DNA from: Escherichia coli phage phiS
Reading direction: 5' to 3' (one strand)
DNA length: 64,000 nucleotides
Sequence record: PP449093.1
The notes below the pieces were generated by a model that saw nothing but the letters and a program-made list of their open reading frames with translations, ran no database searches and had not been told where the DNA came from. Positions 29,129-35,272 of the stretch are shown piece by piece. Position numbers and translations under genes: made by a program. How positions within the stretch are numbered: the first letter of the stretch is position 1; every line of letters starts with the position of its first letter.

Positions 29129-29156
29129 TTGACATGCTGATGTTAGGATGTATAAT
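29129..29156 (+). promoter_or_regulatory. sigma70-like early promoter
   Basis: AAAAAGGTGTTGACA, 16 nt spacer, TATAAT, ACAAACATCGAAAC leader. Confidence 0.6.
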
Positions 29157-29186
29157 ACAAACATCGAAACAAAGGAGGATAAAAAT

Positions 29187-30431
29187 ATGAAAACTTACTT
29201 TGCAAAAGATGTTTGTTATATTATCAAAAATAAATCCGTCTCAAAAACACCAGAACATTACGAGAATCTCTCAATAAGTTATGCATTGTCTCATGGTTTC
29301 GTTTATTTGGGGTTTATTGGAGAATATTCTGGATGCCAAACCCTGTCAAATTTTGAATGTAAAAGACATGGAACGTTTGCGGTCAGAGTAAAAAATCTAA
29401 ATCATGCTAAACATGGTTGCCCAAACTGTGCCCTTGAGAATAGGGCAGAAAAAAGAAAATTGAGTATAGAAAAGATTTATAACGACATAAATCGAATCTG
29501 TGATGAGAACGGAACCATAGAATTAACAGAAATTAAAGGTGGGTATAAAACAACAAAAACACGAAATTTATTTTTTAAATGTAAATTGTGTAATGGCATG
29601 TTTAATACATCACATGATCATTTAAAACGAGGTCAAGCATGTCCAAAATGTCGGTATAAAAAAATTTCTGTGTGTAATACTAGAAACCAACTTGATATTG
29701 AACTTGACATAAAAATAGAATGTAAAAAAAGAAAAACCGTTGAATTTGTAGAATTTGAAAATGGATATTGCAGATACAAGTCAAAAAATTTAATAATGAG
29801 ATGTTTGCGTGGACACGGAAATTACACAACAACAGCAAACGACTTTTTTAAGGGATGTGGTTGTCCTACATGCGGAGGAACGAAAAGACTAACAGAAAAA
29901 CAAGCATCTGAACAAATGATAAAAGAGTGTGAAATTAGAGGTTATGATTTTTTGGGATTTTTTAATGGGTATAAAAAGTCGGCAGAACCTAATGCAAAAT
30001 TAAAATGTAAACGCAGCGGGGTAAGTTTTTATACATCACACAACAATTTTATGAAAGGACAAAACTGTAAGTGTTGCTCTGAATTTGGATATAGAACAAC
30101 GAAATCTGGTGTTTTCTATGTACAGAAACTGTTAGAAAATAATATTTTTTGTGGTGTTAAATTTGGTGTAACCAATAGAACAACAAAAGAACGAATTGGA
30201 GGTCAATCTCGCCTTTCCAAATTCGACCACGAGATCTTTTATGAACTTACTTTACAAGACGGTCAAAAGATCTTAGACTTAGAGAACAAGATCAAGGAAG
30301 CGATGAAAGGTAAAACTTCCTATATCTCAAAAGAAGATATGCCGGATGGCTACACAGAGACAGTAGCACCGTCCGAATTGAGCACTATCATGTATATCGT
30401 AAAATCTTTTGAAAAAGAGTTGACAAAGTAA
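29187..30431 (+). CDS. Cys-rich protein: four tandem zinc-ribbon-like repeats plus C-terminal GIY-YIG-like domain
   Basis: Four repeats of about 28 aa ending in GCPxC / CPKC / CPTCGG / CKCC; C-terminal GVFYVQ...KFGVTNRTTKERI...EIFYEL; locus matches the T4 segG neighbourhood. Confidence 0.5.
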   Translation: MKTYFAKDVCYIIKNKSVSKTPEHYENLSISYALSHGFVYLGFIGEYSGCQTLSNFECKRHGTFAVRVKNLNHAKHGCPNCALENRAEKRKLSIEKIYNDINRICDENGTIELTEIKGGYKTTKTRNLFFKCKLCNGMFNTSHDHLKRGQACPKCRYKKISVCNTRNQLDIELDIKIECKKRKTVEFVEFENGYCRYKSKNLIMRCLRGHGNYTTTANDFFKGCGCPTCGGTKRLTEKQASEQMIKECEIRGYDFLGFFNGYKKSAEPNAKLKCKRSGVSFYTSHNNFMKGQNCKCCSEFGYRTTKSGVFYVQKLLENNIFCGVKFGVTNRTTKERIGGQSRLSKFDHEIFYELTLQDGQKILDLENKIKEAMKGKTSYISKEDMPDGYTETVAPSELSTIMYIVKSFEKELTK

Positions 30432-30821: not shown

Positions 30822-31403
30822 ATGATTCAATGTGTATTTGCGATTGGTGACACTAAAATGTCGGATGAAAATTGGGCGTTTGGTTTTAAAGGCGGCTTAC
30901 CGTGGGGTCGTCCAATCAAAAAGGATATGGAAAACTTTAAAATGCGCACTATGGGAGATGTTGATCTTGCGGCGGTGGTAATGGGACGTAATACCTTTGA
31001 AAGTCTCCCTAAAGCACTGGAAGGTCGTGTGAATGTGGTTGTTAGCACCGATACCAGTAAGCCAGCACCGAAAGCAAAAAACGGCGACCAACCAGATGTG
31101 TATACCGCGATTACTAATGATGGTGGATTGAAGGAATTATTAGAAGTCATAGAGAAATTGCAAGGTTTGGTAAGCGTTATTGGTGGACCTTCCCTGATTG
31201 AAAAAGCAGTTGACTTTGCGGACCGTATTGTGTTAACGTATGTTCAACGTTCAGGGATCAACGATCCATTTGAATATGATGTTGGTATATCTAAGGAAAT
31301 GATTCAGGAATTGTATTTTGACTTTGTAACCAAAGAAGAACATAATTACTTCCTTGATAATTACCTGATCAGCGAACAAATTTTAGAACGTAAGAAGGCG
31401 TAA
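30822..31403 (+). CDS. frd: dihydrofolate reductase
   Basis: 193 aa; DHFR motifs (GLPWGRP.KKD...F...T, V.GR.TFESLP, VIGGPSL); ATG at 30822 after GGAGA, ORF-track start at 30705 is further upstream. Confidence 0.85.
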   Translation: MIQCVFAIGDTKMSDENWAFGFKGGLPWGRPIKKDMENFKMRTMGDVDLAAVVMGRNTFESLPKALEGRVNVVVSTDTSKPAPKAKNGDQPDVYTAITNDGGLKELLEVIEKLQGLVSVIGGPSLIEKAVDFADRIVLTYVQRSGINDPFEYDVGISKEMIQELYFDFVTKEEHNYFLDNYLISEQILERKKA

Positions 31404-31404
31404 C

Positions 31405-31497
31405 ATGAAAATTCTGACAGATTATGAGTGCAAACATTGTGGTGAATCTTTGATGTTTGCTGGTAGTCGGTGCTTACATTGCGGACGGGAGCAATAA
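31405..31497 (+). CDS. small zinc-ribbon peptide (30 aa)
   Basis: CKHCGE...CLHCG between frd and td; below ORF-track cutoff. Confidence 0.4.
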   Translation: MKILTDYECKHCGESLMFAGSRCLHCGREQ

Positions 31498-31766
31498 TGA
31501 AAGTCGGTATTATTCAATTATGGACGGCTACCAGTGAAAACTACGCAGTAGCCGTAGATTATTACGGGTTACAATATCTCTATGATGAAGCTAAAGCGTC
31601 ATGGCTTCCAGTACAGGAAAATAGCGACATTTCAAGACCTGTTACTGTATTCGATCCTGGAGTTGTCTTTATCGATATTGACGAGACAGTAGCAAAACTG
31701 CGTAAGAAAGCAATCAACAAGAAAAAGGTGATGTGGGATGAAAGAATATTTGAAACTGTTGCGTGA
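31497..31766 (+). CDS. hypothetical protein (89 aa)
   Basis: TAATG overlap with the upstream peptide; in frame with ORF-track 31470..31766. Confidence 0.5.
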   Translation: MKVGIIQLWTATSENYAVAVDYYGLQYLYDEAKASWLPVQENSDISRPVTVFDPGVVFIDIDETVAKLRKKAINKKKVMWDERIFETVA

Positions 31767-32958
31767 TGTTCTTGATAATGGCTGGCCTCGTGAAGACCGA
31801 ACTGGGGTAGGTACGCTCTCTAAATTCGGCGCAGAGATGCGAATTGATTTAAGCAAGGGTTTCCCATTACTGACCACTAAAAAGATGGCTACAGCCTCTG
31901 TAATTGGCGAATTGCTATGGTTTATGGAGGGATCACTTGACCGCCGTCGCTTACAGGAAATTACACGCGGCAAGTTTGACGAAGAAGCCTTCGACATTTG
32001 GCGCGGCAACTGTCTTGATATGAAAGAAAAGAATCCTTTGCGATTCAATGGTTATAATGTCGGCAATATGTATGGTATGGCGTGGCGACGCAAACCGATT
32101 CATCCACACGGTGAAATCAAAATTAAGCGCGTTAAGAGCAAATATACACATACATTTAAGCACCCGTGGGTAGAAGACTTTACGCCAACCAATGAAACAG
32201 AAGACCGTTTATGTGCTATCTGGCGTGGTATGCGTTATGAAGAGTTTGATTGTATTCTGGTAGCAGACCACTGGAAGACTCAATCTAATTTTGTTAATGA
32301 TGCATATTGCTTGTGGGGATTCCAGGAATGGGTAGATAGTGGTTATTTCGATTATCTGCTTGATAGTGATTATCTGGGCGGTGACATTTTAGCACCGGAT
32401 ACCACGATCTTTGTTAGTATGGACGTAGACACATCAAGCCCTAAAGACGATGAGGAATATGTATATCGCCAGAAGATTTGGGAAGACCAGTTACAAAACG
32501 TGATTGAACAAATTAAAAACAATCCAACAGATCGCCGGATCATTATTGACTCATGGAACGTACAAGGAACACATAATGCTGTATTAGGTGTATGTCATCC
32601 TTTCGTGCAATTCTATGTCAATGAAGGTAAACTGTCTTGTATGTGGTTTCAGCGAAGCGTAGACAGCTTTTTGGGCTTGCCCTTTAACGTCGCCAGCTAT
32701 GCGCTGTTAACTCACATCATAGCGAAAATGTGTGATCTTGAGGTAGGAGAACTGATTTTCTCTGGTGGAGATACTCACATTTACAAAAACCACTTTGATC
32801 AAGTTATGGAACAGTTAAGCCGTGTTCCGTTTGATAAACCAACAATTGAGTTGCCGGAATTTAAATCTTTAGATGAGATATTGACAAAGACTCCGAAAGA
32901 CTTTAAAATTCACAACTATCAAAGCCATCCAGCGATCACAGCTCAAATGGCAGTATAA
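31738..32958 (+). CDS. td: thymidylate synthase with about 130-aa insertion in the small domain, intron-less
   Basis: ThyA motifs (DRTGVGT, MYGMAWRR, DRRIIIDSWN, CHPFVQFYV, DSFLGLPFNVASYALLTHI, GGDTHIY); continuous 406-aa frame. Confidence 0.9.
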   Translation: MKEYLKLLRDVLDNGWPREDRTGVGTLSKFGAEMRIDLSKGFPLLTTKKMATASVIGELLWFMEGSLDRRRLQEITRGKFDEEAFDIWRGNCLDMKEKNPLRFNGYNVGNMYGMAWRRKPIHPHGEIKIKRVKSKYTHTFKHPWVEDFTPTNETEDRLCAIWRGMRYEEFDCILVADHWKTQSNFVNDAYCLWGFQEWVDSGYFDYLLDSDYLGGDILAPDTTIFVSMDVDTSSPKDDEEYVYRQKIWEDQLQNVIEQIKNNPTDRRIIIDSWNVQGTHNAVLGVCHPFVQFYVNEGKLSCMWFQRSVDSFLGLPFNVASYALLTHIIAKMCDLEVGELIFSGGDTHIYKNHFDQVMEQLSRVPFDKPTIELPEFKSLDEILTKTPKDFKIHNYQSHPAITAQMAV

Positions 32959-32962
32959 ACAA

Positions 32963-32985
32963 AGGGGGCGAAAGCCCCCCAAATA
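32963..32985 (+). terminator. GC-rich hairpin after td (weak terminator or RNA stability element)
   Basis: GGGGGC-GAAA-GCCCCC; no clear T-run. Confidence 0.35.
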
Positions 32986-33028
32986 TGGAGGATAAACTTG
33001 TTCCTGCTAAAATATGAAGTGAGGTAAT

Positions 33029-35272
33029 ATGATTAAAAATGTTGTTAAGTCTTCCGGTCTGACTGTTCCGTTTGAAAAAGAAAAAGTAATGAAAATTCTT
33101 GAAGCGGCAGCCGAAGGTCATAACGTTGATCCATATGAATTGTTTGATATGGTTGAACCACTTCTGACAGAAGGTATGTCTACCAATGATATCCAGAAAG
33201 TATTGATTAAGGTCGCAGCAGATAACATTACTGTAGAAACACCAGATTATCAATATGTAGCAAGTAACCTTGCAATGTTCGCGCTTCGCAAATCAGTATA
33301 CGGTCAATTCCAACCGATTGATTTTTATAGCCATATTGAGCGTAATATTGCAACCGGAAAATATGATCGCGAAATTCTGCAAAAGTATTCCCGCGAAGAA
33401 GTGGAATATCTGGAGAAATTCATCGATCATAAACTTGATTTTAAAATGACCTACGCTGGTGCGATGCAGTTAAAAGAGAAATATCTTGTTCAGGATCGCA
33501 GCACTAAGAAAATCATTGAAACACCGCAGTTTGCGTATATGCTGATCGGTATGTGCTTACATCAAGAAGAGACAGAAAATCGACTTGAACATGTGATTGA
33601 TTTTTATAATGCTGTTGCGAATAAGCAAATTTCTCTGCCTACTCCGATTATGGCGGGTGTGCGTACCCCGACACGACAATTTAGTTCGTGTGTGGTTATT
33701 GAAAGTGATGACTCATTGCAGGGCATCAACGAAACAGCAAATGCAATCATCAAGTATATTAGTAAGCGTGCTGGTATCGGTATCAATGCTGGTATGATTC
33801 GCGCGGAAGGATCTAAGATCGGGCATGGTGAAGTTCGTCATACTGGCGTTATCCCATTCTGGAAACATTTTCAGACTGCCGTTAAGTCATGCTCACAAGG
33901 CGGTATTCGTGGCGGGGCGGCGACTCTCTATTACCCAATGTGGCATTTAGAGTTTGAAAGTCTTATTGTGTTGAAGAACAACAAAGGGGTAGAAGATAAC
34001 CGCATTCGTCATCTTGATTACGGCGTACAGATTAATAACCTGATGGTAGAGCGATTCCTTAAACGGGATTACATTACTCTGTTTAGTCCAGATGTTGCAG
34101 GTGGCTTGTTGTGGGATCTGTACTTCCGAGATGAGGAAGGTTTCCGCCAGCTTTACGAAAAACTGGAAAAAGATCCGAGTGTTCGTAAAACTCGTGTTAA
34201 AGCCGAAGACCTGTTTTTAGCGGTAGCAATTGAACGTTTTAACACTGGTCGAATCTACCCAACATTCACAGACAACATGAACAATCACGGGGCGTTTATT
34301 CGTAATGTAGCACCAATTAAACAATCTAACCTGTGTTGTGAAATTGCTCTGCCAACAAAACCGATGGGTCGTGATGATTCAGAAATTAGCCTATGTACTT
34401 TGGCAGCATATGTTTTAGGTAATTTCGATATCGAAAATATGGAAGAAGTAGAACGCATTGCTATGGTTATGGTGCGTGCACTTGACAACCTGTTAGATTA
34501 TCAGGATTATCCTGTAGAACAAGCTCTGACAGCCAAAAAACGTCGCTCTCTGGGTGTTGGTGTTACTAACTTTGCATCATATCTAGCAGATAATTTCTTC
34601 ACATATGAAGACGCTAACGAGTTTACGCATAAAACGTTTGAACGCTTGCAATATGCTCTGATTAAGGCTAGTGTGCGACTGGCTAAAGAGAAGGGTGCTT
34701 GCGAACTGATGCACGAAACACGTTATGGTCGCGGTGAACTGCCTATCGACTGGTACAAAAAGACAGTAGATGAACTGGTTGATCCGGTGTATGAGATGGA
34801 TTGGGAAGAACTGCGCGAAGACCTGAAAAAATATGGCATTCGTAACAGTACACTTTCGGCGCTGATGCCGTGTGAGTCGTCTTCTCAGGTATCTAACAGC
34901 ACAAACGGTATTGAACCGCCTCGCGGGATTGTATCGGTTAAAGGATCGAAAGAAGGGCAATTTAATCAGGTTATTCCGAACGTAGAGAATAATGCTGATG
35001 TTATTGACCTGCTTTGGACACTGATCAAGAAAGGTAACAAGCCTTATCTGACACTGGCAGCGATCATGCAGAAGTTTGTAGATCAGGCGATTAGTTCCAA
35101 TACATCCTATGATCCAAGCACTTATAAGACTGGTAAAGTCGATATTGCTGATGTGTTAGATGATATGTTGTTCGCTCAACATTACGGTCTGAAAACCCTG
35201 TATTATGCGAACGTTCGCGACGGTGCAGATGGTACGGAAGACGCTAGCGAGTGCTCATCTTGCAAGCTGTAA
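33029..35272 (+). CDS. nrdA: aerobic ribonucleotide reductase large subunit
   Basis: 747 aa; class Ia RNR alpha motifs incl. catalytic NLCCEI and C-terminal CxxC. Confidence 0.95.
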   Translation: MIKNVVKSSGLTVPFEKEKVMKILEAAAEGHNVDPYELFDMVEPLLTEGMSTNDIQKVLIKVAADNITVETPDYQYVASNLAMFALRKSVYGQFQPIDFYSHIERNIATGKYDREILQKYSREEVEYLEKFIDHKLDFKMTYAGAMQLKEKYLVQDRSTKKIIETPQFAYMLIGMCLHQEETENRLEHVIDFYNAVANKQISLPTPIMAGVRTPTRQFSSCVVIESDDSLQGINETANAIIKYISKRAGIGINAGMIRAEGSKIGHGEVRHTGVIPFWKHFQTAVKSCSQGGIRGGAATLYYPMWHLEFESLIVLKNNKGVEDNRIRHLDYGVQINNLMVERFLKRDYITLFSPDVAGGLLWDLYFRDEEGFRQLYEKLEKDPSVRKTRVKAEDLFLAVAIERFNTGRIYPTFTDNMNNHGAFIRNVAPIKQSNLCCEIALPTKPMGRDDSEISLCTLAAYVLGNFDIENMEEVERIAMVMVRALDNLLDYQDYPVEQALTAKKRRSLGVGVTNFASYLADNFFTYEDANEFTHKTFERLQYALIKASVRLAKEKGACELMHETRYGRGELPIDWYKKTVDELVDPVYEMDWEELREDLKKYGIRNSTLSALMPCESSSQVSNSTNGIEPPRGIVSVKGSKEGQFNQVIPNVENNADVIDLLWTLIKKGNKPYLTLAAIMQKFVDQAISSNTSYDPSTYKTGKVDIADVLDDMLFAQHYGLKTLYYANVRDGADGTEDASECSSCKL

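Follow-up and report, generated by a model that had tools for sequence, protein, structure and literature searches.

A thymidylate synthase of Krischvirus phages with an in-frame, probably reduced homing-endonuclease-like module in a surface loop

Homing endonuclease genes are, to our knowledge, thought to survive in essential genes only by way of self-splicing introns, inteins, intergenic sites or gene splitting. The td gene of phage T4 carries a group I intron, an RNA element near the LGLPFN-coding region, with the GIY-YIG enzyme I-TevI. Inteins with homing-endonuclease domains occur in phage and archaeal ribonucleotide reductases, ThyX and polymerases. Free-standing phage homing endonucleases include T4 MobE, between nrdA and nrdB, and HNH enzymes of the I-HmuI type. 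In the split genes nrdA/mobE of Aeromonas phage Aeh1 and 39/60 of T4, the function of an essential gene survives the insertion of an endonuclease gene without splicing. The fold of thymidylate synthase (TS) itself tolerates surface insertions of 12-50 residues, such as the 50-residue small-domain insert of Lactobacillus casei and eukaryotic insert 1. The gene described here is td of Escherichia coli phage phiS, at 31738..32958 (+ strand) of a 64,000-nucleotide stretch of sequence record PP449093.1; this whole stretch is called the window. It probably encodes a working TS in which the loop after the conserved W-R motif permanently bears a compact, folded remnant of a homing-endonuclease-like module.

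The locus shares features with each of these systems. As in T4, the gene is td, the phage is of the T4 type and a mobile endonuclease element is concerned; unlike in T4, there is no intron, and an HNH-like module occupies the loop after W-R. Like the inteins, the element is related to endonucleases, lies in frame at a conserved site within a gene of nucleotide metabolism, occurs sporadically and degenerates with time. It differs from them in having no Hint domain or junction nucleophiles and in being predicted to stay in the mature protein as a loop-inserted domain. Free-standing relatives of the module, present in thousands of phage genomes, occupy the same kinds of position as free-standing homing endonucleases: between nrdA and nrdB in Escherichia phage ESCO9 (L018:3019-3675), next to the DNA polymerase gene in ICP1 and, in Vibrio phage K408 (L003:1387-2208), upstream of a td that has no insert, at a distance of two genes. 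Unlike those endonucleases, the td module is fused inside the host reading frame, carries D-K-D where canonical HNH enzymes have D-H, and is not matched by the HNH models of Pfam. Split genes yield two host polypeptides and a separate endonuclease, and td yields a single polypeptide with an internal module. The known variable inserts of TS have no independent domain or endonuclease ancestry, whereas the td modules, of 131-285 residues, are predicted to form a separate folded domain.

The td region matched 58 phage records at 96-98% nucleotide identity, all of them Krischvirus (RB49/Phi1-like coliphages), which places the window in that genus. The 58 records share the same td gene, of 406-410 amino acids (aa), annotated in Phi1 and RB49 as plain thymidylate synthase. 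The open reading frame (ORF) in the window encodes 406 aa plus a stop codon and is open throughout. Around td the genes run in the order gene 32, a variable 'endonuclease' ORF, frd, td, nrdA, nrdB. The td product was matched by PF00303 (Pfam) in two pieces (E = 4.9e-85; 285 bits against a cutoff of 24.3) and by TIGR03284 thym_sym (NCBIfam; 284.5 bits against a cutoff of 108). A phmmer search of the PDB aligned residues 1-82 with residues 1-82 of E. coli ThyA and residues 250-406 with ThyA 110-264 (ThyA matches at E ~1e-68). By these three matches, it is a member of the ThyA-type family over both halves of the fold. R21, E58, W88, Y112, R266/R267, C286, R306, D309, N317, H347 and Y349 stand in invariant or near-invariant columns of the TS alignment and align with E. 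coli ThyA, in which they presumably correspond to the catalytic and substrate-binding residues R21, E58, W80, Y94, R126/R127, C146, R166, D169, N177, H207 and Y209. From the ThyA alignment and these columns, an N-terminal core (aa 1-118; 31738..32091, +) was delimited, with the DRTG motif, E58, the small domain with its 'RFNGYNVGNMY' signature and W116-R117. The C-terminal core (aa 250-406; 32485..32955, +) holds D-Q, DRRII, the catalytic C286-H287, QRS-D, N317 and GDTHIY. With domains and catalytic motifs intact, the product is predicted to be a functional ThyA-type enzyme.

Between W116-R117 and the D-Q motif (residues 250-251), both read from the sequence, lies one contiguous block of 131 residues (residues 119-249; 32092-32484). 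E. coli ThyA has a loop of 8-10 residues in its place (about residues 100-109), so that the block adds ~123 residues net; the small domain upstream is longer too, by ~17 residues (residues 83-118 against ThyA 83-99). A preliminary description of the window had claimed a ThyA in which the GxxWR and DRRII motifs are separated by one large insert in frame, and had given exactly the same coordinates for it. The two PF00303 pieces, the PDB alignment and the TS alignment all agree with this claim, and the alignment with ThyA homologs that it had proposed as a check returned the extra residues as one block, the ~17 upstream apart. It had also placed the insert in the variable small domain, and of this only the position between the motifs stands. 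The classical small domain precedes the GxxWR motif; the insert is therefore outside it, in the loop just after W-R, the site of 'eukaryotic insert 1' in human TS.

The preliminary description was likewise right that there is no T4-type group I intron and that no intein splice-junction residues are evident. The ORF is continuous and no RNA family was found in 31400-33300 (Rfam, E <= 1), on which grounds an intron of the T4 td type was rejected. No Hint or intein domain was found with Pfam in the td product or in the longer inserts of other phages described below. The insert starts with K119-P-I and ends with K-I-W-E (E249), followed by D250, so that the junctions offer no C/S/T nucleophile and no terminal HN; an intein was also rejected. 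A 12-nucleotide (nt) in-frame indel within the insert, at about 32245-32260 (codons 170-175), accounts for the 406- and 410-aa forms of td within Krischvirus (window and Phi1, 'EFDC--ILV'; RB49 type, 'EFDSEYNLFLV').

The insert, which the preliminary description did not identify, is by sequence comparison a putative reduced homolog of a phage homing-endonuclease-like module. Whole-protein searches found other long thymidylate synthases of 441-559 aa, including a 'hypothetical protein' of Klebsiella phage phiKp_21, all with the whole of their extra length at the same loop as the Krischvirus insert. The long inserts share the motif series LYxxWxxMxxRCY...Y..G.V.VCxRWxNFxNFxxD...LDKDY..G..YSPxTCxF.....N. 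In PHROGs they matched phrog_2081 'HNH endonuclease' (E = 1.7e-33) and also phrog_953, 374, 3377 and 8790; the window insert alone reached phrog_2081 only at E = 0.31. One long insert, used as a tblastn query, found 1440 phage records, mostly free-standing genes annotated as HNH endonuclease or hypothetical, and reached the Krischvirus td directly (E = 2e-11). A profile of seven short inserts was compared by hhalign with a profile of 25 free-standing proteins and matched with a probability of 97.3% (E = 2.5e-11) over 102 columns. Intermediate inserts of 163-200 aa also exist, for example in Vibrio phage D69, within a graded size series of 127-285 aa. Fold matches in BFVD included proteins named homing endonuclease. 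Homology between the window insert and the free-standing module family (phrog_2081/953/374/3377) is statistically supported by these profile and translated searches.

An exhaustive HMMER search over 1.84 billion representative proteins, clustered at 50% identity, placed 17,146 clusters in the module family at E <= 1e-3 and 4,438 at E <= 1e-10. In about 67 of the best 150 clusters the module separates the N-terminal from the C-terminal half of a thymidylate synthase; the others of the best 150 are free-standing proteins, 170-720 aa long, some of which carry the module twice in tandem. Long modules (about 245-285 aa) at the same TS loop were found in at least 60 distinct TS clusters. After the module, free-standing members often run on into an AP2-like or I-HmuI NUMOD-like DNA-binding domain, a further likeness to free-standing homing endonucleases. 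These weak AP2 and NUMOD-like matches, outside the module, were the only ones in Pfam and NCBIfam, where neither the window insert, the long inserts nor the free-standing members matched any family. A word-indexed protein search returned nothing for the window insert alone and only 13 matches for the insert profile. Insert profiles searched against PDB sequences gave nothing or spurious Get1 coiled-coil matches, and Foldseek gave no significant match in the PDB. For the beta-beta-alpha-metal restriction endonucleases PacI and Hpy99I, scores were weak, Foldseek gave no match, sequence similarity was absent and the catalytic residues differ.

The anatomy of the full module was taken from a structural model of a 245-aa insert (predicted local distance difference test, pLDDT, 94.4). 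The model has two stalk strands, a small N-terminal beta domain, a helical region with the W/M/RCY/RW/NF/D residues, and a strand-strand-helix unit (E162-164, E179-181, H183-189) that carries L-D-K-D, YSxxTC and the conserved Asn, as well as a C-terminal strand-strand-helix element. By column statistics, long TS modules keep the near-invariant residues of the free-standing members at 72-100%, with D-K-D at 92-98% and the Asn at 86-90%. Both groups are basic (median net charge +7), against a net charge of -11 for the window insert, the globular part of which has an isoelectric point of 4.05. Short inserts have neither the N-terminal beta domain nor the RCY...Y segment, and they also lack the motif helix with its Asn and the C-terminal element; D-K-D is degenerate in them, with changes of Y to L, S to A and C to T in the YSxxTC part. 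The window insert keeps the family W, M, V, W, F, D, L and T and has no R-C-Y...Y-x-G segment; its hairpin 206-227, the counterpart of L-D-K-D...YSxxTC, is degenerate, with D-S-D for D-K-D, Y replaced by L, S by A and C by T. The full family signature (W, M-x-x-R-C-Y, Y, G, V-x-x-R-W, N-F-x-x-D, L-D-K-D, Y-S-x-x-T-C, N) is thus not present in it. Two segments, 'AYCLWGFQEWVD' and 'APDT.IF', are invariant only in short inserts. Because module parts, the D-K-D...N motif and the positive charge have been lost, the window insert most likely no longer binds or cuts DNA. We read the Krischvirus insert as a domesticated or decaying relic in an enzyme predicted to be active.

The fold of the td product was predicted with AlphaFold2 from a 21-sequence alignment, giving a mean pLDDT of 92.2 and a predicted template modelling score (pTM) of 0.90. 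Averaged over blocks of ten residues, pLDDT was 77 at residues 111-120 and 89-98 in all later blocks of the insert, from residue 121 on. The structural model suggested in the preliminary description thus returned the insert as a confidently predicted folded domain. Predicted elements are a strand at 126-130, helices at 153-168, 177-189 (177-180 and 182-189) and 195-200, a hairpin at 206-209/224-227 and a return strand at 241-245; the strands at either end look like a stalk made of two strands. The N-side strand, aa 126-130 'EIKIK' (32113..32127, +), lies in a flank of the form 'h-x-[VI]-K-[KR]-[KR]' seen in all insert-bearing TS. The helical core, aa 153-200 (32194..32337, +), comprises 'RLCAIWRGM', 'VADHWKTQSNFVNDAY' and 'CLWGFQEWVD' and holds the family-invariant W, W, F and D. 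The putative relic beta-hairpin, aa 206-227 'YLLDSDYLGGDILAPDTTIFV' (32353..32418, +), is not followed by a predicted helix. The C-side strand, aa 241-249 'YVYRQKIWE' (32458..32484, +), leads back into the TS core through a '[YF]-V-x-R' flank conserved in insert-bearing TS.

Selection on the insert was estimated by the method of Nei and Gojobori for pairs among the window, Phi1, RB49 and a close relative (P0002). The ratio of nonsynonymous to synonymous substitution rates (dN/dS) was 0.12-0.29 in the insert and 0.01-0.11 in the TS core. Short-insert relatives at 88%, 60% and 52% overall identity occur in uncultured T4-like phages with the same gp32-frd-td-nrdA synteny. In the most distant of these proteins, amino-acid identity was 50% in the insert against 65% in the core (P0005) and 38% against 62% (P0006). 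By the low dN/dS, the in-frame indel and retention in relatives, the insert is under purifying selection, less strict than that on the enzyme core, and appears to be translated.

Cultured carriers of a module in td are the genus Krischvirus, the Klebsiella jumbo phages KP13-7 / phiKp_21 together with Escherichia phage UE-S1, Asteriusvirus ph0011, the Bacillus Bastillevirinae phage 015DV002 and Vibrio phage D69; they belong to unrelated groups. Among about 50 jumbo phages related to ph0011 (121Q, PBECO4, SP27 and others), only ph0011 has the insert, and the others have an insert-less td of 930 nt, with 81-85% identity to ph0011 in the flanks. DNA homology between ph0011 and PBECO4 is confined to nt 1-274 and 1387-1641 of td, leaving ~1.1 kb of foreign sequence. 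This foreign stretch covers the small domain, the insert and ~75 downstream codons, and its small domain has the 'FNGYN.GNMY' signature of Krischvirus td. Phage 015DV002 is the only carrier among its Bastillevirinae relatives, the nearest of which, fHSPT3, has an 885-nt td. Comparison of these two showed a clean insertion of ~270 aa between '...QWGsWG' and 'vnQ...'. Their flanks are 80-100% identical in most 20-residue windows, 60% in the last 10 residues upstream and 50-60% across the first 40 residues downstream of the insert. In a tree of TS cores, most insert-bearing enzymes group together, and two (P0015 and P0089) nest among insert-less enzymes. The core of P0015 is 86% identical to that of the insert-less P0106, and its insert of 281 aa is in place of a 30-aa loop. 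Presence/absence polymorphism with mosaic flanks of the co-converted type, as expected of a mobile element, is thus a property of the long inserts only, as far as these sequences go. The window copy does not show it, the insert being present in all 58 Krischvirus records found. For the long forms the pattern suggests horizontal, homing-like spread; endonuclease-driven transfer is not proven by it.

The history best supported by these results would begin with a full-size module entering an ancestral td in frame, at a tolerant loop, through homing-like gene conversion. The insertion may have been tolerated without RNA or protein splicing because the two antiparallel stalk strands would hold the module away from the catalytic core. 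From there the module would have passed horizontally from one phage td to another, with repeated insertion at this same loop. On the T4-like line that led to Krischvirus, its losses would then have comprised the N-terminal beta domain and the RCY...Y segment, the D-K-D...N motif with the Asn helix, the C-terminal part and the positive charge. It would have become fixed, whittled down to a 131-residue acidic domain in an otherwise normal enzyme, and would persist as an integrated domain under purifying selection. The relic may, speculatively, keep a former target site interrupted and so render td immune to related endonucleases. We infer from sequence both homing as the means of transfer and, for the Krischvirus insert, the loss of DNA binding, as well as any role that the relic has at present. 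A bolder version holds that the full-size modules of KP13-7, UE-S1, ph0011, 015DV002 and D69 are active site-specific endonucleases within the TS polypeptide, the Krischvirus insert being a fixed, disarmed end-stage that was possibly exapted; this is put forward tentatively and is rather doubtful as it stands. The dimeric host enzyme might in that case supply two nuclease heads.

Several observations weigh against a remnant of a homing endonuclease. The general-base His of HNH and His-Me finger nucleases is absent from the consensus of the module family, free-standing members included, which has D-K-D instead, and the HNH models of Pfam match neither these members nor the long inserts nor the window insert. 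Nuclease activity of the family is accordingly a presumption made with the canonical His missing. Ordinary recombination could also leave mosaic flanks and a module that is present in one relative and absent from the next; DNA identity in the flanks that were compared is only 75-87%, so that no recent event was caught. The insert-less enzymes in the tree were picked by similarity to the window protein, so that counts of independent gains are rough. Purifying selection and the 'AYCLWGFQEWVD' segment are equally compatible with a new, unnamed function. The main rival builds on this last point and holds that the insert is an adaptive accessory domain: TS would have recruited a DNA- or protein-binding module as a tether to the replisome or to a dNTP-synthesising complex, or for regulation, and the Krischvirus version would have been remodelled into an acidic interaction domain. 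Its attraction lies in the selection on the insert, the very high model confidence with a defined orientation to the core (pTM 0.90), the invariant residues that short inserts do not share with free-standing members, the marked switch of charge to -11, and retention in T4-like phages down to 52% identity with synteny conserved. Yet sporadic presence in near relatives and mosaic flanks look selfish, most TS, those of sister phages included, work without an insert, the free-standing relatives sit in classical homing-endonuclease positions, and none of the searches made indicated a partner or ligand. An adaptive origin of this kind is considered unlikely, although it is the strongest competitor.

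The other alternatives are much less probable. That the window insert is still an active site-specific endonuclease, making the Krischvirus enzyme bifunctional, would fit its homology to an endonuclease-like family and a predicted folded domain under selection. The deleted RCY...Y segment, the D-S-D and the three further substitutions in the hairpin, the missing Asn helix, N-terminal beta domain and C-terminal part, and the net charge of -11 speak against it, and, as all Krischvirus records found carry the insert, an empty target for homing is lacking; this is very improbable. Removal of the segment before the enzyme matures, by a group I intron, an intein or translational bypassing, has precedent in the T4 td intron and in inteins of phage nucleotide-metabolism genes, ThyX inteins among them. 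It is scarcely tenable for a continuous ORF with protein-level purifying selection across the insert, no Rfam match, no Hint domain or splice-junction residues, a well-packed modelled domain on a two-strand stalk, and an RB49 indel of 12 nt that keeps the frame. A lineage-specific expansion of the loop, similar to endonucleases by chance, could appeal to the E value of 0.31 of the window insert alone against phrog_2081 and to the lack of a Pfam match. It is no more credible than removal, given the profile-profile E value of 2.5e-11 over 102 columns, the tblastn E value of 2e-11 from a long insert, and the shared position, stalk flanks and graded sizes (127-285 aa) that join short and long inserts. 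A remnant of a homing-endonuclease-like module, borne by a working enzyme, thus remains the probable reading.

Set beside the routes by which homing endonucleases persist in essential genes, these data point to another solution, in which a surface loop of TS that tolerates insertions displays the module, translated with the enzyme, as a domain on a stalk. Such modules span dozens of distinct TS lineages, in Straboviridae, jumbo phages, Herelleviridae and Vibrio phages. Should the long forms be active, they would represent a third way for a homing endonuclease to reside in an essential gene, as a loop domain on permanent display and not by way of an intron or an intein. They would then also be natural nuclease-enzyme fusions, and a simple, testable system for the invasion, tolerance, decay and perhaps co-option of selfish nucleases. 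The module family, with its more than 17,000 representative clusters, has no Pfam or NCBIfam model. No description of an endonuclease-like insert in TS, or of the td insert of RB49/Krischvirus, was found in the literature searched, the coverage of which was incomplete; in-frame, splicing-free endonuclease-like modules in thymidylate synthases are apparently an undescribed class. In several phage genomes, moreover, the insert has caused a TS gene to be labelled 'HNH endonuclease' or 'hypothetical protein'. The module-carrying TS of D69 (L013:1557-2990) bears the former label, those of ph0011 (L015:1578-3218) and phiKp_21 (P0010) bear the latter, and PF00303 matches each of the three in two pieces. 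A divergent protein of the TS superfamily (P0125; 448 aa, truncated by the end of its contig) has an unusual N-terminal region, 'RRIYINLW' in place of DRRII..SWN, and a full module at the same loop, and the insertion may therefore extend beyond canonical ThyA enzymes.

Two neighbouring ORFs of the window were also inspected. A small ORF at 31470-31766 (+) overlaps the start-codon region of td by 29 nt; it corresponds to ORF236 of Phi1 and RB49 (89-98 aa) and had no Pfam match. The product of the 427-aa ORF at 29148-30431 (+), between gene 32 and frd, contains a CapR homology domain, and treble-clef zinc-finger motifs (CPNC, CPKC, CPTC) recur in it. Its label in Phi1 and RB49 is 'endonuclease', and relatives are 340, 405, 427, 460 and 485 aa long. 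This ORF is probably a further variable gene of the homing-endonuclease-like kind and has no relation to the td insert; as a source of that insert it was ruled out, since it belongs to a different family. In an uncultured T4-like phage with a short-insert td (P0005; L007:4689-7876), nrdA is seemingly split into ORFs of 476 and 324 aa, between which lies a 237-aa ORF with a faint I-HmuI NUMOD-like match. This is a likely example of a ribonucleotide reductase with genes in pieces of the Aeh1 type. The contig that holds the close relative P0002 (L010) has two ORFs that are absent from its sister contig L009, one with HNH_3 between genes 59 and 32 (L010:742-1338) and one for a DNA methylase between nrdA and nrdB (L010:8587-9426). 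The region is a hot spot of mobile genes.

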